Origin: Aliivibrio fischeri ES114
GTDB taxonomy: Bacteria > Pseudomonadota > Gammaproteobacteria > Enterobacterales > Vibrionaceae
Assembly: GCF_000011805.1 (NCBI RefSeq)
Contig: NC_006841.2
DNA length: 32,000 bases
Reading direction: 5' to 3' (one strand)
The position numbers were made by a program, and so were the translations under genes. Shown here one piece after another: positions 2 through 19,664 of this stretch; the stretch's first letter is position 1; the number at the start of each line of letters is the position of its first letter. The notes under the pieces were generated by a model. The model had not been told where the DNA came from and made no database searches. It worked only from the letters and a program-made list of their open reading frames with translations.

Positions 2-496
2 CCACTACCAGAAGCGCAGCTTGACCGTTTCTTAATGCATTTGGATGTGGATTACCCTGGCGCACAAGACGAACTAGCCATTCTGCGTTTAAATCGTGGT
101 GAAGCCTTGGGTGAGCAAGCACAAAGACCACAACCATTAGCACAAAGTGAGATTTTCAGTGCTCGTAAAGAAGTGTTATCCATTTACATGGCACCTGAAA
201 TCGAGCAATACATTATTCGTATTACGATGGCGACACGTAAGCCTGCACAATACTGCCAAGAGTTAGCAAACCAACTTGAAATGGGTGTTAGCCCACGTGC
301 GACATTAGCGTTAGATCGTTGTGCTCGTGCACATGCATGGTTAGCAGGTCGTGATTACGTAAGCCCTGAAGATGTTCAAGCTATGGCTTATCCTGTATTA
401 CGTCACCGACTGCTATTAAGCTTCCAAGCGCAAGCAGAAGGCACAACGGCAAATAAAGTCATTGAGCGTTTATTACAAATGGTAGCGGCGTCTTAA
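2..496 (+). CDS. MoxR-family AAA+ ATPase, C-terminal part (5' end lies upstream of the window)
   Basis: The frame is open from nt 2 (PLPEAQLDRFLMHLDVDYPG...). LPEAQLDRF plus the following helical lid region is typical of MoxR/RavA-type ATPases. It is followed by DUF58 and VWA genes, as in Bat/MoxR operons. Confidence 0.85.
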   Translation, partial: PLPEAQLDRFLMHLDVDYPGAQDELAILRLNRGEALGEQAQRPQPLAQSEIFSARKEVLSIYMAPEIEQYIIRITMATRKPAQYCQELANQLEMGVSPRATLALDRCARAHAWLAGRDYVSPEDVQAMAYPVLRHRLLLSFQAQAEGTTANKVIERLLQMVAAS

Positions 497-544
497 TTTA
501 ATCAAGACACATTGCTAAACGTTAATTCGACATAAGCAGATATT

Positions 545-1504: not shown

Positions 1505-2037
1505 TGTCTTTATCTTCAACAGCAGCGCCAAATGCTGCATCACCGTCCGCCCCATTGCCTTTAGCGGATTTACATTTACCAGAAGCACCAAGCTTCTCGC
1601 TGTCATGGCAAGGTTACGGATTAATTTTTCTTATTATTGCTTGTATTGCTCTTCTTGTTTGGGCTTTTATGGCTTACAGAAAAAAACGACGCCTTCAACG
1701 GGTCGCTTTATCGGAATTAGCGAAATTAAAGCCAGAACAGACTCGTGATGTAGCAAAGCTATTAAAACAAGCTGCATTGAGTCATTTCTCTCGTCAGCAA
1801 ATTGCAGCGCTGCATGGACTCGCTTGGTGGAATTTTATTGAACAAAAGCTTCCGACAAAAAAACAAGCCAATGTTCACTTTGCTACTCGCTCAGAAATGC
1901 TAGAGAAAGCCTTATACGGCAAAGTGCCTTTATCTGAAACCAATCAGAAACGCTTTTATGATGATGTGCGTTACTGGTTGATTCATGCATTGCCTGCAAA
2001 ACAACAAAAAGCAGAGCAAGGAGCAAAACATGATTGA
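1504..2037 (+). CDS. DUF4381-like single-pass membrane protein
   Basis: It has a Pro/Ala-rich N-terminus, one hydrophobic helix (GLIFLIIACIALLVWAFMAY) followed by RKKRR, then ALSELAKL. Position and size match the small membrane protein between DUF58 and BatA in Bat-like operons. Confidence 0.7.
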   Translation: MSLSSTAAPNAASPSAPLPLADLHLPEAPSFSLSWQGYGLIFLIIACIALLVWAFMAYRKKRRLQRVALSELAKLKPEQTRDVAKLLKQAALSHFSRQQIAALHGLAWWNFIEQKLPTKKQANVHFATRSEMLEKALYGKVPLSETNQKRFYDDVRYWLIHALPAKQQKAEQGAKHD

Positions 2038-2995
2038 ATTTATGTGGTGGTGGGTATGGTTTTTATTGCCAATCCCATTGGTGATCTATTTCTTAATGCC
2101 AGAAAAAGAAGCTGGCGAAGCGATTCATTTGCCTCGTTTACCTGACCAAGGTGAATACAAACAACCAAATAAACGCATTAATATTGGCTTATTATCATTG
2201 GCTTGGCTTTTATTGATAGCGGCACTTGCACGTCCTGTCTGGTATGGCGAGCCTGTGGATATTCAGCCAGAACACAGAGACATGATGTTGGTGGTGGATT
2301 TATCCGGCTCTATGGCAGAAGAAGACATGAAAACCAGTAATGGTGATTTTGTTGACCGCTTAACCGCTGTTAAGCAAGTGGTGTCCGATTTTATTGACCA
2401 ACGTAAAGGCGATCGCCTAGGCTTGGTGCTGTTTGGTGATCACGCTTATCTTCAAACGCCTCTCACCTTTGATAGAAACACAGTACGTGAGCAATTGGAT
2501 CGTACCGTGCTAAATCTTGTAGGCCAACGCACCGCGATTGGTGAAGGTTTAGGACTGGCAACCAAAACCTTTATTGAAAGTAATGCACCACAAAGAACCA
2601 TTATTTTATTAAGCGATGGGGCTAATACGGCAGGTGTACTAGAGCCATTAGAAGCAGCGCAACTAGCAAAAGATAATCATGCCAAGATTTACACCGTTGG
2701 TATTGGCGCTGGTGAAATGCAAGTACGTGGATTCTTTGGAAAACAAACGGTAAATACCGCTCGTGATCTGGATGAAGATACCTTAACCAAGATTGCGACA
2801 ATGACTGGCGGACAATATTTCCGAGCTCGTAACGCCGATGAACTTGCAGAAATTTATCAAACCATTGATGCATTAGAGCCTGTGACTCAAGCAACACAAA
2901 CTTGGCGTCCCCATGAAGAGTGGTTCCGTTACCCACTAATGGGCTATTTGTTTGTTCTTTTCATTATTGTTGGAGTAAGAAAACGCCATGGCTAA
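2030..2995 (+). CDS. VWA domain-containing membrane protein (BatA-like)
   Basis: The N-terminal TM segment MIEFMWWWVWFLLPIPLVIYF is followed by a MIDAS-type VWA motif (MMLVVDLSGSM ... LLSDGANT) and a C-terminal TM. I chose the ATG at 2030, which overlaps the upstream stop by 8 nt, rather than the ORF-track start at 1985. Confidence 0.85.
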   Translation: MIEFMWWWVWFLLPIPLVIYFLMPEKEAGEAIHLPRLPDQGEYKQPNKRINIGLLSLAWLLLIAALARPVWYGEPVDIQPEHRDMMLVVDLSGSMAEEDMKTSNGDFVDRLTAVKQVVSDFIDQRKGDRLGLVLFGDHAYLQTPLTFDRNTVREQLDRTVLNLVGQRTAIGEGLGLATKTFIESNAPQRTIILLSDGANTAGVLEPLEAAQLAKDNHAKIYTVGIGAGEMQVRGFFGKQTVNTARDLDEDTLTKIATMTGGQYFRARNADELAEIYQTIDALEPVTQATQTWRPHEEWFRYPLMGYLFVLFIIVGVRKRHG

Positions 2996-4895
2996 TTTTA
3001 CTTTTCTCTATCCGATGTGGTTTTTAGCCCTCATACCATTAGTGGCTTTGATTGTTATTCAACGAAAAAACCAACATCACGGTGGCTTAATCGCCCCACA
3101 CATAGCAAAACAACTTGGCATGGTTCAAAAAAAGAACGGCCATGGTTTTTTATACGGACTCAGCGTTATTTGGTTTTGTGTGACAACTGCACTTGCAGGA
3201 CCAAGTTTTGGCTATAAAGAAACACCGAGTTTTCAGCTTTCTGGCGCTCGAATTCTTGTCATGGATATGTCTCGCTCTTTGTATGCGACGGATCTTAAAC
3301 CTAACCGTTTAACCCAAGCAAAATACAAAGCCAAAGATCTTCTTCCTTACTGGAAAGAAGGCATGACAGGGTTAGTAGCTTATGCTAACAGCAGTTATTT
3401 AGTAAGTCCGTTAACAGGTGACAGCAAAACGTTAGATAATCTCATTACTAACCTATCCCCTGAAATCATGCCTTATAAAGGGAAAGGAAGTAATTTATCG
3501 ACAGCAATCAATCAAAGTATTGAGATGATGAAAAAATCTGGCCATCAGCAAGGCGATATCGTTGTCTTAACTGACGGTATTTCTTCATCACAACTTAAAA
3601 AAGTCACTGTACTAATTGATGGTACCAAGTGGCGTATTAGTTTATTGGGTGTCGGAACCACTAATGGCGCACCTATCGAGCTGCCTAATGGTCAATTATT
3701 AACGGACAACACGGGTAAAACGGTCGTCGCAAAACTCAATCCACAACCATTACAGCAAATAGCGACGGAAACGCATGGTGTGGCGCAGCTTATCCAATCG
3801 GATAACAGCGATATTGATGCTATCGTTCGGTTAACCAAAACACCTTTAGAGCAAGTAACAAAAAACAGCGATACACAAGTGAACAGTCGTGCAAACCACG
3901 GATACTGGTTACTCTTCCCTATTGTATTGCTTTCACTATTTGCTTTTCGAAAAGGAATGATTTTAGCTTTATTGCTTGTATTGTTACCTGTAGATAAGTC
4001 CATGGCGAATACGTTGTTATCAAACGATTACAACGCTCACCAACAATATGAGCAAAAAGAATATCAAGCGGCCAGTGAACAATTCCAATCCAAACAATGG
4101 AAAGGAGCGGCTCAATATAAAGCGGGAGATTATAAAGGCGCTATTGAAAGCTTAACTGGCCTTAGTGATGTTCAATCACAATATAATCTTGCGAATGCAT
4201 TAGCGCAAAATGGACAACTTGAAGACGCTAAAGCTCAATATGAATCTTTATTACAAGCTAATCCTGACATGAAGGATGCTAAAACCAATTTGGATATCGT
4301 CAATAAAGCGCTAGAGCAACAGCAACAGCAACAGCAACAGCAAAACGATAAGAATAAACAATCGGATAAAAACAAAGACAATAAAGAGCAAGATCAGAAT
4401 AAAGATAAGCAAAACCAAGATAACAAAGACGGCTCTGATCAATCTTCAGATTCTAAAAACTCGCAATCTCAAGATTCACAGCAGAATCAGCAGAATCAGC
4501 AGAATCAGCAGAATCAGCAGAATCAGCAGAATCAGCAGAATCAGCAGAAGGATAAATCTCAATCTGAGAACGAGTCAAAATCAGATAAACAAGAAAAATC
4601 CGATGCTTCTTCTCAAGAGCAGAAACAACAAGCTCAAGATAAAAAGCAGCAAGAACAGAAAGAGAAAGAAAAATCAGCACAAGCAAGCGATAAGCAAAAT
4701 GACGCAAAGAAAGAGAAGAAACAAGCTCAAATGCAGTCTCAACAGGGTCAAGTTGATAGCGATGCAAAAACAACGGATCCACGTTTACAAAAACTAGAAC
4801 AATCAGGTGCTAAAGAAGACGAACTGCTTCGTGCCCTACTCTATTTACAAGCTCAACAACAAGAGCCACCACAAGCTTCTGAGAACGAATGGTAA
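2988..4895 (+). CDS. VWA + TPR membrane protein (BatB/BatC-like fusion) with a long Q/N/K/D/S-rich low-complexity C-terminal region
   Basis: An N-terminal TM is followed by a VWA-like segment (ILVMDMSRSL ... VVLTDGISS), a second TM (YWLLFPIVLLSLFAF), TPR-like repeats (YKAGDYKGAIESL, YNLANALAQNGQLEDAKAQYESLL) and about 170 aa of low complexity. The start overlaps the BatA-like stop by 8 nt. Confidence 0.8.
   Translation: MANFTFLYPMWFLALIPLVALIVIQRKNQHHGGLIAPHIAKQLGMVQKKNGHGFLYGLSVIWFCVTTALAGPSFGYKETPSFQLSGARILVMDMSRSLYATDLKPNRLTQAKYKAKDLLPYWKEGMTGLVAYANSSYLVSPLTGDSKTLDNLITNLSPEIMPYKGKGSNLSTAINQSIEMMKKSGHQQGDIVVLTDGISSSQLKKVTVLIDGTKWRISLLGVGTTNGAPIELPNGQLLTDNTGKTVVAKLNPQPLQQIATETHGVAQLIQSDNSDIDAIVRLTKTPLEQVTKNSDTQVNSRANHGYWLLFPIVLLSLFAFRKGMILALLLVLLPVDKSMANTLLSNDYNAHQQYEQKEYQAASEQFQSKQWKGAAQYKAGDYKGAIESLTGLSDVQSQYNLANALAQNGQLEDAKAQYESLLQANPDMKDAKTNLDIVNKALEQQQQQQQQQNDKNKQSDKNKDNKEQDQNKDKQNQDNKDGSDQSSDSKNSQSQDSQQNQQNQQNQQNQQNQQNQQNQQKDKSQSENESKSDKQEKSDASSQEQKQQAQDKKQQEQKEKEKSAQASDKQNDAKKEKKQAQMQSQQGQVDSDAKTTDPRLQKLEQSGAKEDELLRALLYLQAQQQEPPQASENEW
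4317..4343 (+). repeat. (CAACAG)4+CAA microsatellite encoding Q9
   Basis: Read directly: caacagcaacagcaacagcaacagcaa. It is in frame in the BatB-like CDS. Confidence 0.9.
4479..4550 (+). repeat. Perfect 9-bp tandem repeat (CAGCAGAAT)x7 plus one variant unit CAGCAGAAG, encoding (QQN)7QQK
   Basis: Read directly from the sequence. The units are identical at the nucleotide level and in frame within the BatB-like CDS. Confidence 0.95.
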
Positions 4896-6562
4896 TACCG
4901 ATGAAAAGACACTTAAACTACCAATCTTCAATAATGAAAACATCACTGATGAAGAAAATACTATTACTGCTTACCCTGACTATCAGCGGAATTTCGTACG
5001 CCAACGCCCAAGCGATTGCAACTGTTAGCAAAAACAACATTACTGAAAACGAAGTTATTCAACTGATGGTGTCAGTAGATAAAAGCGCAGATCAAAGTAA
5101 GTTTGATATTAGCCAGCTCGGACCGGATTTTCGTTCAGGCCAAGTCAGCTTTGGGAGCTCTCGTTCATTAGTTAATGGCGATTACAGTGTTCAAAGCCAA
5201 TGGACTGTATCGATTGCACCAACCAAAATGGGGATATTAACCATTCCAAGTATGGAGGTTGCAGGTGAACAAACAAACCCAATCAACATTCGTGTAAATA
5301 AAGACGCAACGGCACCAAAAAGCAGCGATATTATCAAAGTCAGCGGTGAGTTAAGTAAAAACGAATTGTACGAAGGTGAAACGGCACAATTTAATGCCAA
5401 AATAGCCATCTTTGCTGATATTCGTCGTTTAAAAGATCCAAATATCATTACTCCTCAAGGAAACGGTGTTGAATTTTCTCCTATTGGTGAAAGTAAACAA
5501 TATCAAACTGTTATTGATGGTTTACAAGCAACTGTGGTTGAACAGGTATTTAGTCTAAGCGCAAACAAAGCAGGTAAATTAACCTTTGATGGCTTGGCTT
5601 TTACGGGAGGATTAATACAAACCGATCGTTACGGTCGTAGCACCAAGTTAATTCCATTAAACATAAACCCAAAACAATACTCAATTAATGTATTAACTAA
5701 ACCATCTGATTACAAAGGAACATGGTTACCAACCAGTGATTTGAAACTAGGTCAGCAATGGCTCGTTGATGGCAAAGTCCTAACCAACACAGAGGTTGAA
5801 GCTGGCACAGCCATTACTCGCCAAATCACCCTAATGATGGCTGATGTCCCACCAGAAAAGTTGCCATCTATTGATATTAGTTATCCAAAATCAGTTCGTA
5901 TGTACGACGAAAAGCCGACCATTGGTAAAGACAGCCAAGGGAATAGTGTGATGACCATTAAACAAGTGATCATTCCACATACATCGGGCCAAGTTAAATT
6001 ACCAGCGGTATCGATTCAATGGTGGAACAGTAAAACGCACAAAGCAGAAGTCGCAAAATTAGATTCATTAATGCTAACCGTGACACCAAACAGTCAAAAA
6101 ACCGAACAAACGATCAAGCAACAAACAAATGAGCAATCGAAGACCGTAATAAAACGAGAAGTTGATCACGGTATTTGGCCTTATACCACCCTAGGTTTTG
6201 CTATTTTATGGCTATTAACACTTATTGCTTGGTATAAAGCACGAAACAGTGTGAGCAAAGAAACATTAACGGTTACATCGAATCATGCTATATCAAATAG
6301 TGATATTTCTATATTAATTACGGCACTTAAATCAGACAATACAATACTTGCACACCAGATCATTCAAGACCATGCTGATGACTGGAAAGCAAAAGGAATC
6401 GATACAGATAAAGTCAAAGTGCTCATTGAGAAATTAAGCCATGCTAAATACTCAAGCAAATCAGAAAACACTGATAAAGAAAGGCTTATTAAAGAGGTAA
6501 CTCAACAATTAAAGGTGAGTAAAAAATCAAAATCAAGCCCAGCAGAACTTGAAGCATTATAG
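4889..6562 (+). CDS. BatD-like (oxygen-tolerance family) membrane-anchored periplasmic protein
   Basis: It has a signal peptide (MKKILLLLTLTISGISYANAQA), a long beta-rich ectodomain, one C-terminal TM (WPYTTLGFAILWLLTLIAWY) and a cytoplasmic tail. It is the last gene of the MoxR/VWA operon. The start is ambiguous among ATGs at 4889, 4901, 4934 and 4949. Confidence 0.75.
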   Translation: MVIPMKRHLNYQSSIMKTSLMKKILLLLTLTISGISYANAQAIATVSKNNITENEVIQLMVSVDKSADQSKFDISQLGPDFRSGQVSFGSSRSLVNGDYSVQSQWTVSIAPTKMGILTIPSMEVAGEQTNPINIRVNKDATAPKSSDIIKVSGELSKNELYEGETAQFNAKIAIFADIRRLKDPNIITPQGNGVEFSPIGESKQYQTVIDGLQATVVEQVFSLSANKAGKLTFDGLAFTGGLIQTDRYGRSTKLIPLNINPKQYSINVLTKPSDYKGTWLPTSDLKLGQQWLVDGKVLTNTEVEAGTAITRQITLMMADVPPEKLPSIDISYPKSVRMYDEKPTIGKDSQGNSVMTIKQVIIPHTSGQVKLPAVSIQWWNSKTHKAEVAKLDSLMLTVTPNSQKTEQTIKQQTNEQSKTVIKREVDHGIWPYTTLGFAILWLLTLIAWYKARNSVSKETLTVTSNHAISNSDISILITALKSDNTILAHQIIQDHADDWKAKGIDTDKVKVLIEKLSHAKYSSKSENTDKERLIKEVTQQLKVSKKSKSSPAELEAL

Positions 6563-10251: not shown

Positions 10252-11187
10252 TTATGCGTATCGATTCATCTCTTCTGAGTCTTCTGGTAACGTTTTGAAG
10301 CGTTTATGTAGCCACATCCATTGCGAAGGTTCTTTCTCAATTAAACGTTCAATCTCTCTATTTAGTACATTTGCAGCTGTAACAGCATCACGGCGTGGAA
10401 TATCATCACTAATGTCATCCCCTATTTCTAAAGTATAGTGATTGTCAGTTCGTATACTGGTACCCGACATAACAGCACACTTTGTCATATCAATTAAGAA
10501 ACTGGAACCCGTAGTTGTTGCCGCTTCTTGAACAGCAAAAAATGGAACAAACACTGAGTTACGGCGGCCATAGTCATGATCAGGCAAATACCACAAACGA
10601 TTTCCAGACTTAAGAACCTTAATCATGCTTTTAACATCATGACGGTCAATCATCTTATGACCTTTACGCGTACGTCCGCGATGTTGAATAAATTCATACA
10701 CAGGATTGCTATTAGCACGATACACGCCATAACCAGGAGCAAAAAGACTAAAAATTCGAGCTGTCATTTCAAGATTTAAAAAATGACAACACAGCACTAA
10801 TACGCCTTTACCTTCTTGCTCTTTTTCTAACATTTTCTCTTGGCCAATAATGGATATATGACGCTTAACACGCCAATCAGGCCAAAACCAAGCCATACCG
10901 GTTTCAATTAATGCTAACCCAGTATTCTTAAAGTTTTCATTCACTAATCGCTCAATTTCTGTTTGTGAATAATGAGGAAAACATAATGCTAGATTTTTTC
11001 GAGCAACGTTCGCACGCTTTTTTAAGCAAAATTTAGATAAACATCCGATTCCATTCCCTATTCTTTTAAGGACGACGAACGGAAGTACATTAACCAATAC
11101 AGCAAGAAAAGAAAAAGATAGCCATACAAGCCAGTACTTTGGAGACAACAGCGCCCATGTAAATTTAGGACTTGGAACTGTTTTCAT
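10252..11187 (-). CDS. LpxL/LpxM (HtrB/MsbB)-family lipid A secondary acyltransferase
   Basis: The N-terminus MKTVPSPKFTWALLSPKYWLVWLSF parallels E. coli LpxL (PKFSTALLHPRYWLTWLG). The HX4D-type region (CCHFLNLEM) and the C-terminal EPSQWMWLHKRFK are family hallmarks. I chose the ATG at 11187, which has a GGGTGA SD; the ORF track extends to the TTG at 11202. Confidence 0.85.
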   Translation of the reverse strand: MKTVPSPKFTWALLSPKYWLVWLSFSFLAVLVNVLPFVVLKRIGNGIGCLSKFCLKKRANVARKNLALCFPHYSQTEIERLVNENFKNTGLALIETGMAWFWPDWRVKRHISIIGQEKMLEKEQEGKGVLVLCCHFLNLEMTARIFSLFAPGYGVYRANSNPVYEFIQHRGRTRKGHKMIDRHDVKSMIKVLKSGNRLWYLPDHDYGRRNSVFVPFFAVQEAATTTGSSFLIDMTKCAVMSGTSIRTDNHYTLEIGDDISDDIPRRDAVTAANVLNREIERLIEKEPSQWMWLHKRFKTLPEDSEEMNRYA

Positions 11188-11407
11188 TTTTTCACCCATC
11201 AAAACTAAGACACCTGTCTCAGAAATATAATTAAAGTGAAATTTTAGTTGAAAAGTTTAATAAGCTCAATCAAGTTTGATCAAATTATTTTCAAAAATAT
11301 CAATTACCTTGATTGAGGCTTATTCATTATAAATAGTTACGTTTTGAATCATTATTTAATTCGACAAATTAGAACTGTGTCGAATAACTTATAAAATACA
11401 GTATTAA

Positions 11408-12226
11408 TTATAATAATTCATCACTATTAATTGTTTCATAAAGTTCTTTTAACAAACCTGATTCAATATTAATCAAACCATCTGATAAATGTATATAATT
11501 ACCTTCAGTTACATTTAGCAATATATTTTTTCTGATATCTTCACTTTCTTTTGATTCTTTATTTTGAAAATGAAAATGTTGTATTTTCTCATAAACCATT
11601 TCTGAGACCTGATCAATTTGTTCTTGCGTTAAACAAACTCGAGACATTCCTACTACTGGTCTTTTTGCTTGTGATAATACTTCAAGCCTTAATTTCTCGG
11701 TAAACAAAGTATCTAATTTAGAACCTTCAAAAAAGGTATAATAAGGAGGAGTAAGAAAGCATGGTGAACCATCACTTTTCAGTTCAACCAAACCCATAAT
11801 CTCCAATGCTCTCAAATAGATATAAACACTCTGTTCATTCAAATGGTTTTCATTAGCCACCTCTTGTACATCTTTTCCTTTGACATGAACTTCATAGAAA
11901 AAATCATACAAATAAGGGTGATTATAAAAGATTTCGTCAAGAACTTCGGTTCTCGTTCCTTCTTCTTTATTGTGAATATCACGTGCAATTTGTGAAAGTT
12001 CTTCTAGATTGGTATTTAATACGGTTGCATATTCCATTAATTTATCAATACCAATTGAATTACTATGAAAATGTCTTTTTAATGTCGAAATAGGTACATT
12101 TACTTTTAATGACAATTCATTATAAGTAAGATCATTTTCTTTTAATTTAACTCGTAATGCATTTAATAATAAACTAGCACAAAATCCCATAACGACTTCC
12201 TTGATGTTATTTCTTATTTTTTTCAA
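11408..12226 (-). CDS. Transcriptional regulator with an N-terminal XRE/Cro-type HTH and a central winged-helix-like segment
   Basis: The XRE-like HTH is LTYNELSLKVNVPISTLKRHFHS. The MarR/ArsR-like wHTH is VQEVANENHLNEQSVYIYLRALEIMGLVEL. The gene is very AT-rich and divergent from the barrel/protease genes. The start could also be the internal Met (MGFCASLL). Confidence 0.6.
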   Translation of the reverse strand: MKKIRNNIKEVVMGFCASLLLNALRVKLKENDLTYNELSLKVNVPISTLKRHFHSNSIGIDKLMEYATVLNTNLEELSQIARDIHNKEEGTRTEVLDEIFYNHPYLYDFFYEVHVKGKDVQEVANENHLNEQSVYIYLRALEIMGLVELKSDGSPCFLTPPYYTFFEGSKLDTLFTEKLRLEVLSQAKRPVVGMSRVCLTQEQIDQVSEMVYEKIQHFHFQNKESKESEDIRKNILLNVTEGNYIHLSDGLINIESGLLKELYETINSDELL

Positions 12227-12343
12227 TTTACTTTATATCATTCTAAATTACTAGTTCGGTTTCATTTTTTGGAGTGAAGCAACTCATAAATTAAAACCCT
12301 CTTAGTTATAAAACTGTAATCATTGCACCACTTTCGCGCAAAG

Positions 12344-12359
12344 GTTACAAATATGTAAC
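12344..12359. promoter_or_regulatory. Inverted repeat GTTACA-N4-TGTAAC in the divergent regulator/barrel promoter region (candidate operator)
   Basis: gttacaaatatgtaac has perfect 6-bp arms. It lies about 80 bp upstream of the barrel-gene ATG (12440) and about 120 bp upstream of the regulator start. Confidence 0.3.
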
Positions 12360-12439
12360 AACGTCAATTTAATGACAAATAATAATAACAGCGTCAGTTA
12401 TCGCTCATGATGAGCACTTTATCGACATGGAAGTCATAT

Positions 12440-13300
12440 ATGCGGACAAAACTATTAAAACAGTCAGCACTATCGAGCTTCATTTTTTGTACTTCAGCAC
12501 TAGTTCATGATGCTTTTGCAGAAGATACGAACAAGGAAGAAATACCTGCTGAATCCACAGAGATAGAACAAGACTCAAATTTAAAATGGGGCGGCTCATT
12601 AAGCCTTGGGTATGACAGTAATCTTTACTCAGCTTCTGATTATCGCTCAAGTCGTGCTATTTCATTTCATGGTTCACTTCATTTGGCATTTTGGGAGCAC
12701 TACTCTCTTTATTCCAATACAGGTGGTTACCGTACATTACAAAATGCTGAAGGATTCTATTCTACAGATACGGTTGTTGGTTTATCGCGCTCATCACTGC
12801 TCACTTTTGGTGATACAGGACGTATGTCTATCAGTGGGCAATTTTCAATCCCAACATCACAAGCGTCTCAAGATAGTTTTCTCAATACCGCTTTTCGTAT
12901 ACAAACCCCATTTACTTTCAAGTTAGCGGACGTTGGTTTCCTTATTGCACCTCGTGTTCGTAAAAACTTTCACCAGTACACTACCTCACCATCAGGCAAC
13001 GTAAATATATCGTGGGGATTATCTTTATTATTAGGAGCAAATTATAACTATGGCGATGCTTTCTTCTCAGTATCGGCATTAGGAGGAACCTCTATAAATT
13101 ATAACGGTCGCTGGGCAGATGGTTACAGCTATGGTGGTAACGTCAGCGCTGGTTATAACTTTTTAGAGGACCTTTCTATTTCATTAACACTGGCTTCTTC
13201 CGGTGTATATACAGATGCAGCACAAGGAACATTAGGCAGCTTTAATCTTTTTGATGAAGCAAAAGCAACCTACTCGCTTGGCATGACTTATTCATTTTAG
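12440..13300 (+). CDS. Putative outer-membrane beta-barrel protein (family not recognised)
   Basis: The signal peptide is MRTKLLKQSALSSFIFCTSALVHDAFA|EDT. The mature part shows repeated amphipathic alternating segments (WGGSLSLGYDSN, AISFHGSLHLAF, RMSISGQFSIP, AFRIQTPFTFKL, ISWGLSLLLGANYNY, YSYGGNVSAGYNF, LSISLTLASSGVY). The C-terminus ATYSLGMTYSF ends in Phe, as in OMP C-terminal signatures. I chose the ATG at 12440, which has a GGAAG SD. Confidence 0.6.
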   Translation: MRTKLLKQSALSSFIFCTSALVHDAFAEDTNKEEIPAESTEIEQDSNLKWGGSLSLGYDSNLYSASDYRSSRAISFHGSLHLAFWEHYSLYSNTGGYRTLQNAEGFYSTDTVVGLSRSSLLTFGDTGRMSISGQFSIPTSQASQDSFLNTAFRIQTPFTFKLADVGFLIAPRVRKNFHQYTTSPSGNVNISWGLSLLLGANYNYGDAFFSVSALGGTSINYNGRWADGYSYGGNVSAGYNFLEDLSISLTLASSGVYTDAAQGTLGSFNLFDEAKATYSLGMTYSF

Positions 13301-13332
13301 GGATAAAATAATAAAAACAGGATGTGAACAAT

Positions 13333-16300
13333 ATGACATATAAAAAGCTTACATTAGCTGCAGCGGTAACCGTTGCACTCACTGGTTGTGCGCCAGAAGA
13401 ACAAGAATATGACACTCTTGATAAAGACCTTACTGAAGTTAAAGTACAAGATTTACGTGTTGAAGGCCGCTGGTTTTATGCTCCAACTACCGGAGCTGCA
13501 CCTCGCTTTGCTGTAACTCAATTTCCATTTTTACAAGGTATGGGACGTTATGTTGAGCTTTGCTTTTCAGATGAAGGCTTAGAAGTTCGTGGCTATGACA
13601 ATAATAATCCTGATCTTTTATTACCAAAAGATAAAAACGGCTTCTGTTTACCGCAAGATGAAAGCAATATCGGCTCTGATGACCAAGTTAACTTTCCTCA
13701 TGTTATGACCATCCCTGGTAGTTATGCGAAATACCAATGTCGTGAAGATAACTACGGAGATTGTACTAACGTTGAAGAAAAAGATTCAGATCCAAACCTT
13801 GGCAACACCACTTTTAGAAACAATACCCACTTTACGCCAAGCCCTGAATCAACATTAGTGAGTGATTTAAACTGGGACGAACTCTATGGCACTAAAGACG
13901 GATTAACACCACAAGGATCACCAGAAGTGATCTCTTGGGAGTTTGACCCTAAAAAAGGCGTATTAAACTTCGAACTTGAACAAACATTTAAGATTAATTT
14001 TTCTAAATTATCGCGTTATATGGATTGGTCAGCAATGGAAGAAGAGTTGGCTAAAGGCTCATTTAAGTCTCGCTTCTATTACTCCCTTGTACATGAAAGT
14101 CACATAGCATCAGAAGATTATCAACCTGTCTTATATCCGGTGAATGATGAAAACGACATTGGTTTCTTTACCACAACAACAAAAGTAAGAGATCCAATCA
14201 CTAACAAATACGATGCTGTCACTTATTTGAACCGTTTTAATCCGGCTCAAGGCTCAATCAAATATTACTTATCAGATAACTTTTTTGAAGAGAAGAATAA
14301 GCTTTTCTTAGACTCGACGATCAATACCGTTAATAAAATGAACGAAACTCTTCGTTTACTTGAACCAAACTCAAACAAACCTATGATTGAGATTGTTAAT
14401 AAATCAGAAGGAATGGGAATTCATCCGGGTGATCTTCGCTATAACGTCATTAATCTTGTCGATGAACCGCTTGATAACGGGTTACTTGGTTATGGTCCAT
14501 CTATTGCGCACCCGAGAACTGGTGAGATCATTAAAGCACACGTAAACCAATATTCTGGCGTTGCACGTCGTGGTGTTCCATTTTACTGGGATAATATGGC
14601 GCGACTGTATAACCGTGGACAACTTGAAATGAATGGTTTAGCTGCAGAAGAATCAGCATCTGCACAATCAAGATCAGAACTTCAAACTAATAGATCCGTC
14701 TCTGAATCACTTTACGCCAATCATAATCAACATGCTCATAATACAACCTCCATTTCAATTAATGAAGAAACAGCAATTGAGTTTTTAGCCCAACAAAGCT
14801 TAAAACAAAAATTGGCGCAAGGTCCAACGATATTAAAACCTGTCAATGATGACATGGATCTTGAAGATATTGTTCGAGCAGAAGAGGAGCGTCTTGCATT
14901 TTGGAGTGAAAACAACGCCTACCCTATTGAAGCGTCATGGGTGTCGTCTTCAAGTAAAGCCGTTATTGATAACTTACCTCTTGTTGACGAAGGTTACTTC
15001 ACGAATATTACGGATCCAGAAACAGGTATTGTTACTAAAACACTAAAACCATGGGCCCTACTGCCAGACCATCTTCAGACGGTTGCAGCTGATGCGATTA
15101 CCGTAACAACTTATGCGAACACTTTAGTTCATGAAATTGGTCATAATGTAGGTTTACGTCATAACTTTAAAGGCTCGAATGACATTGATAACTACCTATC
15201 AAAAACACAATCTAAACTACTTGGCTTAAGCAACATTCCAGCGTACAGCTCAACAATGGATTACGCACCAAGTATGCTTGATGAAATCCCAACTTGGGGT
15301 CTATATGACTTAGCTGCATTTAAATTTGCATACGCTCGTAAACTTGATCTTGTTGAAGCATCACCGATGAGCGCTGAACAACGCGCGTCTGAAGGTGGTG
15401 AAGCTGCATATGCTAACTCTTTCTACAGTCAATACGGTGCAACCGCTGAAAATGAATCTCTTATGGTTTGTACTGAGCAATCACAAGTACTTGATGCTCA
15501 AGGTCAAGCAACGGGACAATCAAACTACACCTGTGATTTCTCTCGTTTAGATACTGCAGCACTAAATGGCAATCCACTTGCTGAACATGGTGTACTTTAC
15601 TACCTAGATGACATACTCGGTTTCACTCGTAAGTCTTATGCTTTCTGTACCGATGGTAATGTTTCTGGCAATAGCGATTGTAACCGTTTTGATGAAGGGA
15701 CAAACCTACAAGAAATCGCCACTTACAAATGGCAGCAATACTTAGACAGCTACGACTCACGAAATGCTGGGCTATATAATGATGGGCTTTATAATTCTAA
15801 TTACCCATCTTATATTATTCGTCGCTTCCGTGAAATGAACACAATACGTGACATGATTGAAGACAATGAACGTGTCGACCAACTATTTCACGATTATGGT
15901 GACGCCTCACCTTCAAATAAGCCGACCGAATTTTTACAAATGGTTGCAGCCAATCCGAATACCTGTGTTTATTCAGAAGATAGAGATGAAAGAGCTGGTA
16001 ACTCGTGGTTATGTGATTATGCCTTTGGTGCGAAAAAAGCTTCTGAATTTTTCTTAGATGTATTACGTACACCAGAAACGCAATGTATTATCACTGACCG
16101 TTCGGGAACTATGCGCAGTATTTCTCTTGGTGAGGCATTAACAGCACAAAGTTATACTATTCCAAGTGAATACGATATTACTCGTGCAGATTGTTTCGAT
16201 GAGGTTGCTACTCCAATTCTTGAATCTTTATATGGAGCAACTGAAATTCATGCCAAATCAATTAACTCTAAGTTCTTAAACTCGGTAGGTTCGTTTGACC

Positions 16301-17424
16301 CATCAAACCCGTATTCAAATGCAGTTTCTGTATTAGGTATGTGGCCAGATAAAGGATTAGCAAGTTACCAATTGGCTCGTCGTTTCTCTTTCCGTTACAC
16401 AGATGAAACTGCGTTTGCTTCTTTACTCGACTTACCTGGGGTTAAAGCCGAATACGATGCCATTATGGCGCACATTGTTGCAAAAGAACCACTAGCCAAT
16501 GCCGTTGAGTTTGTTGATAGAGCTGGTGCACCTTATGAACCAATCATCGATGTTAACTTACACGTTTCACAACTGGTAGAAGCACTACCACCAATGCCAC
16601 GCGGTATCGAATCATTCTATGGTTTAACTCGCACTGGTAGAACCGATATGTCGAGCATGATTGTGTATATGGGTACTCGACAAATGCTGACTTCTGATTA
16701 TAAATTTGCAGAAACAGCCCTACAGCAACGTAACAGCTTAACAAAACAGCTTGATCAATATGGTTTGCTTGGTGGTGATGGATTAACGGTTTCAATTGGA
16801 GGCATTAATTACACCATCACTAAGGACAATACACTAGCGAATCGTGTCGCTTCAAAACTGTTTACAAGTGAAGGTTACACAGCAAAAATTGCGCTAGATA
16901 ATACGTCAGCTGAAACATTAACGAATATTCTTAATGCATGGCAACCAGTAGCAGGGTTTAAATCATCGTTCCATACGCCAATTCTTGCCCTTGATGCACC
17001 ATTTATTGAATTGATCATTAATTCATATAAAGCACAAATTGCCTCTGGTGAAATTGATTTAAGCAATGGTATGAACAACCAGATCTTTAATGCAGTTATT
17101 AACGGGGTTCTATCACAACCTGATGTTACTTATAACCCAGAAACAGGTACCGTTACATCAAATACAGGTAAAGAGCACAGTATAAGCAGTGTAATTTCTA
17201 TCATTGATTATACAATGGCATACGTAAATGCTGGACTTGATCCAACACTTCTTACGGCAAGCTATGCCCTATACGACGGCTTTACTGGAGCAGAAGAAAC
17301 CAATCAGTTTGCTTGGACGCTCACATTAGAAATGATTAAAGCCTATCAATCAGGTGATTATACAAACATGGTTGGCGAACATTACGAAGCACTTCGTAAA
17401 CTCCCAGTTCACAAAATTTATTAA
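13333..17424 (+). CDS. Large (1363 aa) lipoprotein with a metzincin-type zinc metalloprotease motif
   Basis: The lipobox is MTYKKLTLAAAVTVALTG|C, with Ala at +2. HEIGHNVGLRH (nt 15130-15162) is an HExxHxxGxxH motif, and a Met-turn-like SSTMDYAP follows about 30 residues later (ATG at 15256). The SD AGGA lies 10 nt upstream of the ATG at 13333. The gene starts 32 nt after the barrel-gene stop. Confidence 0.8.
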   Translation: MTYKKLTLAAAVTVALTGCAPEEQEYDTLDKDLTEVKVQDLRVEGRWFYAPTTGAAPRFAVTQFPFLQGMGRYVELCFSDEGLEVRGYDNNNPDLLLPKDKNGFCLPQDESNIGSDDQVNFPHVMTIPGSYAKYQCREDNYGDCTNVEEKDSDPNLGNTTFRNNTHFTPSPESTLVSDLNWDELYGTKDGLTPQGSPEVISWEFDPKKGVLNFELEQTFKINFSKLSRYMDWSAMEEELAKGSFKSRFYYSLVHESHIASEDYQPVLYPVNDENDIGFFTTTTKVRDPITNKYDAVTYLNRFNPAQGSIKYYLSDNFFEEKNKLFLDSTINTVNKMNETLRLLEPNSNKPMIEIVNKSEGMGIHPGDLRYNVINLVDEPLDNGLLGYGPSIAHPRTGEIIKAHVNQYSGVARRGVPFYWDNMARLYNRGQLEMNGLAAEESASAQSRSELQTNRSVSESLYANHNQHAHNTTSISINEETAIEFLAQQSLKQKLAQGPTILKPVNDDMDLEDIVRAEEERLAFWSENNAYPIEASWVSSSSKAVIDNLPLVDEGYFTNITDPETGIVTKTLKPWALLPDHLQTVAADAITVTTYANTLVHEIGHNVGLRHNFKGSNDIDNYLSKTQSKLLGLSNIPAYSSTMDYAPSMLDEIPTWGLYDLAAFKFAYARKLDLVEASPMSAEQRASEGGEAAYANSFYSQYGATAENESLMVCTEQSQVLDAQGQATGQSNYTCDFSRLDTAALNGNPLAEHGVLYYLDDILGFTRKSYAFCTDGNVSGNSDCNRFDEGTNLQEIATYKWQQYLDSYDSRNAGLYNDGLYNSNYPSYIIRRFREMNTIRDMIEDNERVDQLFHDYGDASPSNKPTEFLQMVAANPNTCVYSEDRDERAGNSWLCDYAFGAKKASEFFLDVLRTPETQCIITDRSGTMRSISLGEALTAQSYTIPSEYDITRADCFDEVATPILESLYGATEIHAKSINSKFLNSVGSFDPSNPYSNAVSVLGMWPDKGLASYQLARRFSFRYTDETAFASLLDLPGVKAEYDAIMAHIVAKEPLANAVEFVDRAGAPYEPIIDVNLHVSQLVEALPPMPRGIESFYGLTRTGRTDMSSMIVYMGTRQMLTSDYKFAETALQQRNSLTKQLDQYGLLGGDGLTVSIGGINYTITKDNTLANRVASKLFTSEGYTAKIALDNTSAETLTNILNAWQPVAGFKSSFHTPILALDAPFIELIINSYKAQIASGEIDLSNGMNNQIFNAVINGVLSQPDVTYNPETGTVTSNTGKEHSISSVISIIDYTMAYVNAGLDPTLLTASYALYDGFTGAEETNQFAWTLTLEMIKAYQSGDYTNMVGEHYEALRKLPVHKIY

Positions 17425-17434
17425 CCTCCCCCAA

Positions 17435-17465
17435 TAAAAAAGCCAGCATAACCGCTGGCTTTTCT
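17435..17465. terminator. Bidirectional intrinsic terminator shared by the metalloprotease gene and the nitroreductase gene
   Basis: aaaaaagccagcataaccgctggcttttcttc has a 7-bp stem agccagc/gctggct flanked by an A-run and a T-rich run. Confidence 0.8.
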
Positions 17466-18230: not shown

Positions 18231-19664
18231 TCAATTTGCCATAGTGACACGGTTTCGTCCGTTATTCTTAGATTGATATAGAGCAGCATCGGCACGTTTG
18301 TATGCATCTGAAAACGTCGTGTCATCATCTACAACACCACCAATTGATACTGTTACATGCAGATCTGCAATTAATTCTTTTTCTATCGCTGATCGTATCC
18401 TCTCAGCTTTTTCTTCTGAATTCGTAACACTAACGGAGTCCAACAAAATGATAAACTCCTCTCCTCCCCAACGAATACAATAATCTTGGTTACTTCTTAC
18501 TGAGGCTAAAATACGTTGCGCAATTTGCTGAATGACTTCATCACCTTTCTTATGACCATAGGTATCGTTAATTTGTTTGAAGTTGTCTATATCAATAATC
18601 AACAATGAAAATGCCTTCATTTTTTTCAGGCGTTTTTCATAAAAGTCACGGCGATAAAACCCTGTCATCGTATCATATTGCAACAAAAACTTGCTGCGCT
18701 TTACATTATAGCCAATTGCAAACAAAGCTAAGGTAATGAACAACGAAGGAAAAATTATTTTCTTTATTAAATCAACAAGGTTTATCCCTAATGTAAATGG
18801 GTCTAACTCAGAACATGGGAGATAAGCCGATTTTTGATATAAATTATTTTTGTTTTGACTGTTCACAACCATATTTTTGATTTTGTTATAGTGCTCTATT
18901 CTCTCATGTAAAAGTGATGCTTTAATATCAACGACTAACAGTGCATCTAAGTGTCGTTTATTATAGATAGGATAATATATCGAGCGAATATTCTCACTCG
19001 TACCATCTTCTATGTATTTTTCCGTCAACTTCAGGTTACAACCATAAAAAGATTGATAGGTTTGTTTTAAATTTTCATTATCTACAATGTGTGAGATAAC
19101 GTTATCTTCCTCTATCTTCTCATAAAATTGCTCATAACTATCTCTGATCGGATCTAAATGAAAATAACTCGATGGGTTCTGGAAGACAGCGATTGTCCAT
19201 AAATTATCACCAATAAGTTTCTCTAACTCAGTTCGTAATTTACTTATCCCTTCAGATAAAACCTTAACTTCTGTATCTCGAGTAACAACAACAGTGACAT
19301 CATTCCTAAAATAACGCCCTTCATCTAATGTGATAGCTGTTGCATTATTATAATAAGATGAGAAACGTCGACTTATCGAATAGACACTTTTATAGTCATC
19401 TACAATTTCACGCTCTAATCGATTCACTGAAATGATATTGAAGAAGAAATAGCAAATTAAACATACGCAAAAGATCAAAGTCCACATTTTCAAAATAATA
19501 AAAATATAGCTTTTTAACTGTGGCAACATTAATCGTCTTAGCATCGTCATTCTTTGAGTAGTAAAAGGTGCGAAATATATAGCAACAATAAAAGGAATCA
19601 ATCTTTGTTTTTTATAAAGTGAGACATTGTCTCCAATTAGAGAAAGCCTAACATAACCACCCAC
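18231..19664 (-). CDS. Membrane-bound diguanylate cyclase (GGDEF) with a Cache-like periplasmic sensor region
   Basis: The C-terminal GGDEF domain includes FYRRDFYEKRL, LLIIDIDNFKQINDTYGHKKGDEV, RWGGEEFIILL and YQSKNNGRNRV. Two hydrophobic segments flank about 230 aa ending in RSIYYPIYNKRHLDALLVVDIKASLL (Cache-like). The GTG start at 19664 is preceded by AAGGAA with a 7-nt spacer. Confidence 0.85.
   Translation of the reverse strand: MGGYVRLSLIGDNVSLYKKQRLIPFIVAIYFAPFTTQRMTMLRRLMLPQLKSYIFIILKMWTLIFCVCLICYFFFNIISVNRLEREIVDDYKSVYSISRRFSSYYNNATAITLDEGRYFRNDVTVVVTRDTEVKVLSEGISKLRTELEKLIGDNLWTIAVFQNPSSYFHLDPIRDSYEQFYEKIEEDNVISHIVDNENLKQTYQSFYGCNLKLTEKYIEDGTSENIRSIYYPIYNKRHLDALLVVDIKASLLHERIEHYNKIKNMVVNSQNKNNLYQKSAYLPCSELDPFTLGINLVDLIKKIIFPSLFITLALFAIGYNVKRSKFLLQYDTMTGFYRRDFYEKRLKKMKAFSLLIIDIDNFKQINDTYGHKKGDEVIQQIAQRILASVRSNQDYCIRWGGEEFIILLDSVSVTNSEEKAERIRSAIEKELIADLHVTVSIGGVVDDDTTFSDAYKRADAALYQSKNNGRNRVTMAN

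Follow-up and report, generated by a model that had tools for sequence, protein, structure and literature searches.

Organization of the locus

Why does a gene for a small outer-membrane protein stand directly ahead of one for a lipoprotein protease of 1363 residues, and what might the two products do together? This question is raised by a locus within a 32,000-nucleotide stretch of DNA (referred to here as the window) from chromosome 2 of Aliivibrio fischeri. The barrel gene is equivalent to VF_A0689 and the protease gene to VF_A0690; relative to A. fischeri sequences the barrel is 97–99% identical and the protease 99% identical, and the protein clusters that they match contain VF_A0689 and VF_A0690 of strain ES114. 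An earlier note on this DNA proposed a self-contained unit of three genes, and the features that it described (a regulator, a protein with a signal peptide, a lipoprotein, their motifs and a terminator) were all found at the positions it gave (Table 1). The flanks are also as it described them, with a lipid A acyltransferase gene, lpxL (NF005340, 474 bits), bounding the unit on one side, and a hairpin with a 10-bp stem and T-runs on both strands on the other. No Rfam families were found in the window.

The open reading frame of the barrel extends from 12407 to 13300 on the plus strand, and the ATG at 12440 is the real start because Met12 is the invariant start among homologues. The earlier note placed the barrel stop 32 nt before the giant lipoprotein, and the stop (13300) and the protease ATG (13333) are indeed so spaced. 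Because this short spacer carries a ribosome-binding site, and a scan between the two genes revealed no terminator-like site, it is probable from these signals that barrel and protease are co-transcribed. The two reading frames are not chance occurrences, since both are conserved with intact motifs across dozens of genera and species. A search of the literature on VF_A0689, VF_A0690 and their protein families recovered no experiment or study of these genes.

Table 1. Features of the barrel–protease locus (window positions)
Feature	Positions	Strand	Remarks
HTH-like regulator	11408..12190	-	260 aa from likely start ATG 12190; ORF reaches TTG 12226
Two adjacent palindromes, candidate operator	12344..12377		Aliivibrio alignment; overlaps promoter-like site
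12-stranded outer-membrane beta-barrel, VF_A0689 type	12440..13300	+	286-aa precursor, ~259 aa mature
Barrel–protease spacer, 32 nt	13301..13332	+	AGGA at 13320, without terminator
Lipoprotein metzincin, VF_A0690 type, Pfam DUF4953 family	13333..17424	+	1363 aa
Lipobox LTGC (Cys19) and acidic tether motif	13378..13413	+	Translation, family consensus
Exchangeable protease body, aa ~251 to end	14083..17424	+	Two allele classes in Aliivibrio
Zinc site HEIGHNVGLRH (15130-15162) and Met-turn STMDY (15250-15264)	15130..15264	+	Invariant residues in homologues
Bidirectional intrinsic terminator	17438..17463		Common to convergent nitroreductase gene

The lipoprotein has the motifs of a metzincin

The giant lipoprotein had been described as carrying HEIGHNVGLRH and a Met-turn-like STMDY, and both the HExxHxxGxxH site (aa 600–610) and the Met-turn (aa 640–644) are present, with residues H600, E601, H604, H610, M642, D643 and Y644 invariant in 33 homologues. 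By these residues, the VF_A0690-type lipoprotein is a metzincin with an intact active site. It matches PF16313 (DUF4953, 'Met-zincin', EcxA zinc-binding domain) at 25.1 bits against a cut-off of 24.2, in an alignment that spans only profile positions 16–95 of 316; all 33 homologues match the same family, with a best E value of 6e-11. More than 538 homologues were found, and among the 120 best there is no member without the metzincin; the N-terminal domain used alone as a query returned two fragments. Besides metzincin-motif families, a Pfam scan of the protease and the 33 homologues gave one marginal match to an unrelated DUF.

Several better known proteases were considered as relatives. PF10462 (Peptidase M66) reaches 18.0 bits, below its cut-off of 20.6, and aligns with the zinc helix alone; some database entries nevertheless label homologues as 'M66 family'. 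The CpaA and Mep72 models score 14–17 bits against cut-offs of 645–750. Among structures in the PDB, adamalysins, pappalysin and serralysin match the zinc helix only, with E > 0.01, and a Flavobacterium elastase lipoprotein is a gluzincin and unrelated. The gamma-proteobacterial proteases StcE/TagA (M66), SslE/AcfD (M60-like), CpaA and Mep72 are comparable in that they are large, secreted or surface zinc proteases that have either a lipobox at the N-terminus or an accessory gene dedicated to them, but only the zinc-binding helix aligns with the VF_A0690 type, and we know of no cognate 12-stranded barrel for any of them.

The barrel belongs to an unclassified family

The VF_A0689-type protein has the attributes of an outer-membrane beta-barrel: a signal peptide (ending in HDAFA and followed by ED), a closed antiparallel barrel, and a C-terminal aromatic residue, the terminal Phe of TYSF. 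An AlphaFold2 model built with 60 homologues has a pLDDT of 86.4 overall and above 95 in the mature part, and its DSSP string reads as 12 strands, two of them with short breaks such that the count is approximate; the figure agrees with the twelve or so strands previously counted by eye. About 21 residues precede strand 1 in the mature protein and are variable and of low confidence. The model contains no periplasmic domain, and neither it nor the homologue alignment gives evidence of a conserved plug helix or coiled coil at the N-terminus.

Foldseek matches the model with probability 1.0 to many outer-membrane proteins, the best being FapF, OmpG and a COG4313 channel (TM 0.5–0.63). FapF, which transports unfolded polypeptide, is the closest (TM 0.53–0.63 to 5o65, 5o67 and 5o68), and the COG4313 (Phenol_MetA_deg) structure 4rl8 gives TM 0.56–0.59; in the VF_A0689 type, however, a conserved N-terminal plug helix is not apparent, and the partner genes are different. 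By sequence, the 286-aa protein (a 297-aa ORF) could have proved to be a known porin or a member of some other family, and searches of Pfam, NCBIfam and PDB sequences matched it to none; among PDB sequences, a FadL homologue alone matches, and weakly (E = 0.0027). Among 60 family members scanned there are scattered weak matches to the MBB clan; PF13557 is matched weakly by three distant members and not by the VF_A0689-type barrel itself. A KdgM-type porin was rejected, as PF06178 appears in one of the 60 (E = 0.068) and is not matched by the VF_A0689-type barrel. An exhaustive profile search yields 127 representatives, and with the VF_A0689-type barrel as its first member they make up a barrel family that has no classification so far.

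Conservation within this family is highest in extracellular loops L3, L4 and L6 (~1.9–2.15 bits), which contain the motifs LPTSExS, KNFHxYxT and DAERGTLG. The periplasmic turns have the lowest values, ~1.0 bit for four out of five.

Barrel and protease are paired across genomes

A genome scan with the profile of a 14-sequence barrel alignment shows the protease directly downstream and on the same strand in all 39 genome loci retrieved via the barrel. The same arrangement, with the protease immediately downstream, is seen at all 13 informative metagenome loci, whose barrels form a subfamily ~23% identical to the VF_A0689 type. In the reverse direction, 12 protease homologues, including those from Aeromonas, Ferrimonas, Motilimonas and Bacteriovoracaceae, and with as little as 27% protease identity, were checked for a barrel, and a verified one lies upstream in 11 of them. 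In every genome that could be checked the barrel is accompanied by the protease, so that the refuting condition set by the earlier note, a barrel of known family that does not co-occur with the protease, does not hold. The intergenic distance is ~25–90 nt at most loci and ~200 nt at two, as measured from tblastn matches, and at three loci the stop-to-stop frames of the two genes overlap. Many Vibrionaceae have the pair, among them V. parahaemolyticus (in a 2416-member protein cluster), V. vulnificus, V. harveyi, strains of V. cholerae and the squid symbiont A. fischeri, and so do Aeromonas and the predatory Bacteriovoracaceae.

It could be argued that the two genes are unrelated and merely happen to be neighbors in A. 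fischeri. We regard this explanation as refuted for practical purposes, as order, orientation and spacing are kept at more than 60 loci from at least two phyla and in differing genomic contexts, with flanking genes that vary by lineage and only barrel and protease constant. The proposed three-gene unit fares less well: the pair stands, but the regulator joins it only in some lineages (Aliivibrio, a few Vibrio species and Motilimonas), which leaves two genes as the conserved core. Their constant pairing in Vibrio and related marine bacteria points to an uncharacterized outer-membrane machine of two proteins, whose most likely task is to place the protease on the cell surface. We also compared the barrel tree with those of protease segments (mirror-tree), and obtained r = 0.72 for the N-terminal region and 0.57–0.69 for the other segments, which does not clearly discriminate among them.

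A conserved lipidated tether accompanies the barrel

The lipobox cysteine (Cys19, codon 13387–13389) is present at all 44 loci, three Aeromonas FGC boxes having been recognized by eye, and 117 of the 118 full-length protease homologues have a lipobox. The residue at +2 is Ala or Gly, not Asp. What follows the cysteine is strongly constrained: the tether of the VF_A0690-type protease begins C-A-P-E-E-Q-E-Y-D, the family consensus is C-[GA]-[AP]-[DE]-[DE]-[QR]-x-Y-[DE] with the Tyr at +7 in 52 of 53 sequences, and the distance from the cysteine to a PSTGAAPR motif is 30–32 aa in all 53 that could be scored. To our knowledge, such conservation of both sequence and length is unusual for lipoprotein linkers. 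The sole exception among the 118, P0129, has an ordinary signal peptide in place of lipobox and tether, and it is also the one among the 12 homologues checked that has no barrel gene within 4 kb. Lipobox and barrel are present or absent together, the exception being a single case.

The genomic neighborhood offers clues to a different role, in which the barrel would be a substrate-specific channel for oligopeptides produced by the protease, wherever the latter is located, with subsequent uptake by a peptide ABC transporter, the whole constituting a small TonB-independent protein-utilization locus. At 14 of 45 loci, and at one further locus (L070), the pair adjoins an opp/dpp-type peptide ABC transporter; pair and transporter point the same way at 13 of these 14 loci and at L070. 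In Motilimonas a peptide ABC ATPase and a pyroglutamyl peptidase lie near the pair. The top structural matches of the barrel are channels, FapF among them as a polypeptide transporter, and conserved inward or outer loops typify specific channels, so that the loop conservation described above is equally expected of one. However, the opp adjacency represents a single syntenic site (oppF–miaE) in the Vibrio lineage and is absent from Aliivibrio, the harveyi clade, most Photobacterium and Aeromonas; small peptides already enter through general porins; the conserved lipidated tether is left unexplained by a channel; and P0129 would still make peptides, yet it has no barrel. We consider the channel explanation unlikely, but with enough in its favor to be taken seriously.

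A hybrid form would have the protease cap the channel, by analogy with SusD/RagB on SusC/RagA. Those systems share the strict one-to-one adjacency of barrel and lipoprotein and a link to peptide use, and the VF_A0690-type lipoprotein could similarly cover the conserved extracellular face of its barrel. They differ in that SusC and RagA are 22-stranded and TonB-dependent whereas the VF_A0689-type barrel is 12-stranded and without a TonB box or plug, and in that the lipoprotein here is a 150-kDa enzyme. If the barrel does prove to be a peptide channel, the pair would be a compact protein-utilization unit outside the Bacteroidota.

Two allele classes of the protease in Aliivibrio

Comparison of Aliivibrio sequences reveals a sharp partition within the protease. 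The N-terminal 250 aa are 86–100% identical and the barrel 71–99%. The remainder of the protease exists in two classes that are only 29–47% identical to each other, both of which occur in A. fischeri. Relative to strain L002, the DNA breakpoints are at ~14568 and just past the stop codon, at ~17438. Aliivibrio thus has two protease alleles that are deeply diverged and are joined by intragenic recombination. Such a pattern would be expected of a moiety that is exposed and under selection; the deep dimorphism in A. fischeri is suggestive of selection acting at the cell surface, and it may have a bearing on specificity for host or niche.

Relationship to known secretion systems

The earlier note recognized neither protein as a member of the families of Slam, MtrB or two-partner systems, and this is correct, as there is no Pfam or NCBIfam support for any of them. 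The closest parallel in genetic logic is with Slam (type XI secretion), where a barrel gene likewise adjoins one for a lipobox protein (TbpB or HpuA) and the barrel is both required and enough for the lipoprotein to appear on the surface (PMC5449769). However, every Slam has an N-terminal TPR domain (PMC5449769), which the VF_A0689-type barrel does not, and Slam has 14 strands where the model of the VF_A0689 type reads as ~12. DUF560 (PF04575) is not matched by the barrel (E<=1) or by the 60 family members (E<=0.1), and a scan of the protease and 33 homologues finds no Pfam-recognizable TbpB-like domain in the cargo. Slam adjacency is ~52% and its cargo diverse, whereas for the VF_A0689 type adjacency is essentially 100% and there is one cargo family.

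Type V secretion provides a second parallel, in that it too combines a 12-stranded barrel with a very large passenger, and the ~30-residue linker beside the membrane anchor could fill the pore. It differs in that barrel and passenger are here two polypeptides and a lipid anchors the passenger. Neither the barrel family nor the protease has a POTRA, TPS or autotransporter Pfam match, and autotransporter barrels are absent from the 50 best Foldseek matches of the barrel model. Membership in the MtrB/PioB group was likewise rejected: there is no Pfam match, and the barrel, with ~259 aa and ~12 strands in its mature form, compares with ~26–28 strands and decaheme partners.

A proposed model for surface display of the protease

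We favor, tentatively and at slightly less than an even chance, the explanation that the lipoprotein protease has in the barrel a dedicated partner by which it is displayed or anchored on the cell surface, the pair being obligate, co-transcribed and one-to-one. Sec would export the protease, which would then receive its lipid at Cys19 and be delivered to the outer membrane, where the 12-stranded barrel, having no periplasmic domain, would serve as its dedicated partner; the conserved lipidated tether of ~30 residues would engage the barrel, and the catalytic body of ~1300 residues would be held on the cell surface above the conserved extracellular loops. Six features argue for surface display: the strict pairing of barrel and protease over large distances, the operon signals between them, the conservation of the lipoprotein tether, the joint presence or absence of lipobox and barrel, the location of the greatest barrel conservation in extracellular loops, and the allelic dimorphism of the protease body. 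From these we infer a physical interaction between the two proteins, exposure of the protease, and a role of the pair in translocation. Several points count against this explanation: the barrel has no periplasmic recognition domain comparable to the TPR of Slam or the POTRA of TpsB, a specific channel would be just as likely to have conserved loops, P0129 is one case, and the mirror-tree correlations do not clearly set the N-terminal region apart.

The route across the membrane is a separate matter. A folded 150-kDa protein cannot traverse the lumen of a 12-stranded barrel, and export through it therefore needs an unfolded or threaded mechanism; we know of no precedent for threading through a barrel that acts in trans. 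One speculative scheme, which we would not expect to hold but think worth stating, is that the pair is a new, minimal Slam-independent route for surface lipoproteins of gamma-proteobacteria in which the barrel acts in trans on its cognate lipoprotein, with the tether lodged inside the barrel or lying against it while the metzincin is threaded out, such that it would resemble a 'split' type V system (intimin-like) with a lipid anchor in place of the covalent link.

Alternatively, the barrel may have no part in export. The type II secretion system of vibrios could by itself bring the lipoprotein out, as this pathway does for lipoproteins such as pullulanase and SslE, or the protease may be kept facing the periplasm; the barrel would then be a docking site, a stabilizer or a regulator of activity. 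The protease has several conserved cysteine pairs, which fit with periplasmic folding before export as in type II substrates, and the absence of a periplasmic domain in the barrel is also in keeping with this alternative. However, the cysteine partners are 8–36 residues apart, and threading would also tolerate such pairs, as autotransporters do when closely spaced pairs occur in their passengers; barrel conservation is on the extracellular rather than the periplasmic side; and no secretion genes accompany the pair at the loci for which flanking genes are listed. We therefore judge this alternative to be quite improbable. If the barrel is a display device, as we favor, the pair would open a class of outer-membrane machines not described before, together with a new surface-protease family of relevance for colonization and nutrition.

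A divergent regulator and its candidate operator

The divergently transcribed gene, presumably VF_A0688 from the tags of its neighbors, is 99% identical to a 260-aa gene in L002. The earlier description of its product as a dual-HTH regulator holds in part: there are two separate HTH-like regions, a Cro/C1-type one at aa 24–77 and a TrmB/winged-helix one at aa 111–152 (with TrmB and HTH_40 matches), but both are under the Pfam cut-offs (HTH_26, 19.4 versus 22; HTH_3, 16.2 versus 23; TrmB, 20.6 versus 25.6), and the assignment is plausible but weak. Homologues lie divergently upstream of the pair at 14 of 45 loci and at one further locus (L048), including one in Motilimonas with 35% identity.

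An automatic repeat finder reported only weak, long-range inverted pairs in the divergent intergenic region. Alignment of seven Aliivibrio sequences shows that its best-conserved stretch consists of two palindromes, GTTACA-N4-TGTAAC (12344–12359) and CGTCA-N6-TGACA (12362–12377), which overlap a promoter-like match at 12355–12383. We propose these as a candidate operator for the barrel–protease operon, through which the divergent HTH regulator probably acts in Aliivibrio, a few Vibrio species and Motilimonas. The regulator has a GC fraction of 0.285, compared with 0.389 for the window.

Conservation of the barrel-protease gene pair

Gene order in other genomes and in metagenomes indicates that the outer-membrane barrel gene (VF_A0689) and the lipoprotein protease gene (VF_A0690) are, in themselves, a conserved unit. 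A scan from the barrel side, using one genome per species, gave 40 loci in Aliivibrio, Vibrio, Photobacterium and Aeromonas, and at all 39 loci with downstream DNA a protease homologue lies directly downstream of the barrel on the same strand. When metagenomes were scanned with a barrel subfamily merely ~23% identical to the window barrel, a large lipoprotein was the next gene in 13 of 13 informative loci; 12 of these lipoproteins contain HExxHxxGLRH, and the remaining one ends before that site. Viewed from the protease side, 11 of 12 homologues, with identities down to 27%, have a gene of 257–289 aa immediately upstream, and all 11 of these belong to the barrel family, as profile searches (E 2e-29 to 4e-84) or else pairwise comparisons with alignment show. 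For Slam, the type XI secretion barrel, ~52% of genes adjoin a lipoprotein gene (PMC5449769).

The neighbours of the pair vary by lineage: Aliivibrio has tkt/lpxL, many Vibrio species have oppF-miaE, and different genes adjoin it elsewhere. At the Vibrio site (L001, L005, L015, L017–L024, L028, L034 and L070) the pair lies between an opp/dpp-type peptide ABC transporter and miaE. Ferrimonas sp. YFM (L047) carries two barrel-protease pairs, tail to tail in inverted orientation, which shows that barrel and protease are duplicated together. The pair is also present in Bacteriovoracaceae-type predatory bacteria (L046, L050–L055), and in the metagenome loci L051 and L052 the stop-to-stop frame of the barrel is ~100 aa longer at its 5′ end and includes a lipobox-like motif.

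Gene layout and boundaries

All of the genes described in the earlier note are present in the ORF list, which confirms the observation. The shorter regulator start agrees with the gene as annotated in a different A. fischeri assembly (99% identical), and the internal start of the barrel is preferred because no homologue departs from Met12 as its start. No terminator-like site is seen in the spacer between barrel and protease. The window proteins are 97–99% identical to A. fischeri sequences, in clusters that contain ES114 VF_A0689 and VF_A0690, whose database annotations are hypothetical or a generic 'zinc-dependent metalloprotease'. GC content is 0.285 in the regulator and 0.305 in the divergent intergenic region, with 0.40 in the barrel, 0.395 in the protease and 0.389 in the window.

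Features of the window and tether motifs of the protease family
Feature	Position	Strand	Details
Bat/MoxR-type operon	35–6562		AAA+ ATPase tail, DUF58, DUF4381, two VWA proteins, BatD
LpxL-type acyltransferase gene	10252–11202		presumably htrB1
Regulator ORF	11408–12226	minus	272 aa; likely start ATG 12190, giving 260 aa
Palindrome pair	12344–12377		GTTACA-N4-TGTAAC and CGTCA-N6-TGAC(A/G); most conserved intergenic stretch across Aliivibrio species
Barrel ORF	12407–13300		297 aa; real start ATG 12440
Barrel-protease spacer	barrel stop to protease start		32 nt; contains AGGA
Protease ORF	13333–17424		1363 aa; starts with ATG
Protease mosaic region	14083–17424		DNA breakpoints ~14568 and ~17438; loci L002, L011, L012
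Protease C-terminus	17350–17424		[Y/F]xxxLxxLP, then variable tail
Hairpin	17438–17463		10-bp stem, T-runs on both strands; between protease and convergent nitroreductase gene
GGDEF gene	18231–19664		AT-rich
Tether, Vibrio and Photobacterium			C-G-A-D-D-Q-x-Y-D
Tether, Aliivibrio			C-A-P-E-E-Q-E-Y-D
Tether, Aeromonas			C-G-A-G-D-E-P-Y-K
Tether, Bacteriovoracaceae-type			C-A-K-E-K-x-Y-D; differing, basic-acidic

On one flank lie tal, tkt and an LpxL-type lipid A acyltransferase gene, and on the other genes for an NfsB-like nitroreductase and a GGDEF protein. The acyltransferase gene, taken in the earlier note as one limit of the module, does lie between tkt and the regulator in the window, but it is absent in some Aliivibrio species (L011, L012, L014) and is therefore no fixed boundary. 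The GGDEF gene is 59–66% identical between Aliivibrio species, compared with 85–95% for its neighbours, and is divided into two gene calls in L002.

The barrel family

The barrel carries a signal peptide (…HDAFA|ED) and a C-terminal …TYSF; at thresholds up to E≤1, Pfam and NCBIfam contain no match to it. A word-indexed search recovered 11 clusters only, all at least 70% identical and one or more of them labelled A. fischeri, and an exhaustive profile search returned 127 representatives at E≤1e-3, almost all of them 260–390 aa long. A scan of 60 of these relatives against Pfam and NCBIfam gave no more than scattered weak matches to various membrane-barrel families (DUF2490, BBP2, OMP_b-brl and Phenol_MetA_deg, with one to KdgM at 0.068), and none of the 60 matches DUF560, the Slam family against which a comparison had been proposed. 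A profile search of PDB sequences gave nothing meaningful. The protein is an outer-membrane barrel whose family is unclassified.

While a first AlphaFold2 model from 12 close sequences was mediocre (pLDDT 63.8), a 60-sequence alignment gave a model with pLDDT 86.4, and >95 across the mature part. The DSSP string of this model reads as 12 antiparallel strands with periplasmic turns of 2–4 residues and longer extracellular loops; two strands are briefly broken, so that the strand count is a reading of a predicted model and not a computed value. The best real superpositions in a Foldseek search of the PDB are FapF, the Pseudomonas transporter of amyloid polypeptide (TM 0.53–0.63), OmpG, and the COG4313 channel 4rl8, and the predicted fold places the barrel among generic small-to-medium outer-membrane barrels. 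Conservation peaks in extracellular L3 (LPTSExS), in L4 where strand 7 ends (PRxRKNFHxYxT), and in L6 (DAERGTLG), and reaches its minimum in four periplasmic turns out of five; loops and turns are assigned from the predicted model, with both termini taken to be periplasmic as is usual. On that topology the functional surface points outward or into the lumen.

The protease family

The protease has a lipobox (LTGC, Cys19), a zinc motif (HEIGHNVGLRH, aa 600–610) and a Met-turn (STMDY, aa 640–644), all invariant across 33 aligned homologues of 27–88% identity. It is a member of the uncharacterised metzincin family DUF4953 ('Met-zincin'), scoring 25.1 bits, just over the Pfam threshold of 24.2; all 33 homologues match this family too. 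Matches to M66, reprolysin, M43, M10, CpaA and Mep72 are limited to the zinc helix and fall below cut-offs. Among solved structures there is no sequence relative beyond the zinc helix, so that the ~600 aa before and 720 aa after the catalytic motif are without recognised domains in Pfam, NCBIfam or solved structures. A homologue search gave >538 matches, and the family extends over Vibrio, Aliivibrio, Photobacterium, Grimontia, Enterovibrio, Aeromonas, Ferrimonas, Motilimonas, Psychromonas and Bacteriovoracaceae. Many database entries label it 'MoxR-like ATPase' or 'ATPase', for which the sequence gives no basis. Nearly all homologues end in a conserved [Y/F]xxxLxxLP and a variable tail of 2–20 residues, unlike the rest of the C-terminal region, which is poorly conserved; this motif may act in sorting or have a structural role.

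The lipid anchor and the role of the barrel

Residues following the lipidated cysteine are conserved family-wide (see the table), with a tyrosine at +7 in 52 of 53 scored sequences and 30–32 residues from the cysteine to the first conserved globular motif in all 53; lipoprotein linkers are normally variable. The acidic patch in this tether resembles the lipoprotein export signal of Bacteroidota, a likeness that may serve as a lead. Among 118 full-length protease homologues the lipobox is absent only in P0129 (L067), which has an ordinary signal peptide and no tether motif. P0129 is also the sole homologue examined without a nearby barrel gene, a six-frame profile search finding nothing at E≤1 within 4 kb. 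The correlation of lipobox and barrel, based on this single exceptional homologue, suggests that the barrel accompanies the lipid anchor and not simply protease activity.

The best-supported reading, which we hold tentatively, is that the barrel displays the lipid-anchored protease on the cell surface or anchors it there. The two proteins would form an obligate complex, the barrel recognising the conserved tether and acting as a dedicated partner that places or holds the protease there. In the main rival, which we consider less likely, the barrel serves as a channel for peptides released by the protease; the structural neighbours of the barrel are channel-like and a peptide ABC transporter adjoins the pair in about a third of loci, but this adjacency is limited to one syntenic site, and the lipobox-less homologue without a barrel also argues against it. 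A hybrid of the two, a protease-capped channel such as SusCD or RagAB, fits all of the data.

A folded 150-kDa protein is too large for a 12-stranded lumen. Display by the barrel might therefore take one of two forms. The tether may fill the pore and the protease body be threaded out, in a split, intimin-like arrangement; the protease cysteines are paired, with partners 8–36 residues apart, and this is compatible with threading. Alternatively, another machine may move the protease and the barrel dock it. A docking barrel combined with type II secretion of the protease, or with a periplasmic location, seems to us quite improbable.

Slam with its surface lipoprotein and SusC-SusD are closest to the pair in genetic logic, although the defining features of Slam are missing, there being neither DUF560 nor a TPR domain in the barrel. 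FapF and COG4313-type barrels are structurally nearest, without sequence membership. Two-partner secretion, MtrB and KdgM were also considered, and their defining features are lacking in the pair. In the literature library searched, no paper mentions the two genes or their family. The pairing of a dedicated barrel and its cognate lipoprotein is an arrangement already known in kind, whereas the split-autotransporter-like reading, if true, would be categorically new.

Protease alleles in Aliivibrio

Across Aliivibrio the first 250 aa of the protease are 86–100% identical and the barrel 71–99%, but past residue ~250–410, catalytic domain included, the proteases fall into two classes only 29–47% identical to each other. 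A. fischeri has both, with 1363 aa in the window and 1449 aa in strain GCA_007989845.1, and the latter allele is 91–98% identical to that in other Aliivibrio species. The DNA of the two strains is 96% identical up to the first breakpoint and again from the second. The protease gene is a mosaic, which reflects trans-species polymorphism or else a transfer of alleles. In A. fischeri the barrel, the regulator and the flanks are 96–99% identical despite the two alleles. Similarly, the cassettes at the Vibrio oppF-miaE site are highly divergent, the protease being 27–63% identical to that of the window, while the flanking genes are 62–85% identical to those of V. cholerae. Polymorphism that is long-lived or exchanged in this way would be a typical mark of surface molecules that are exposed.

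The regulator and a candidate operator

The regulator contains two weak HTH-like regions. Homologues are divergent upstream of the pair at all Aliivibrio loci, at four Vibrio loci (53–66% identity) and in Motilimonas (35% identity over 251 aa), and absent at most Vibrio, Photobacterium and Aeromonas loci, so that the three-gene unit proposed in the earlier note stands for the former and not for most others. The four Vibrio loci share no other flanking gene with the window, and the link of the regulator to the pair therefore looks functional but optional. The palindrome pair overlaps a promoter-like site 65–95 nt upstream of the barrel start, and is a candidate operator for this regulator.
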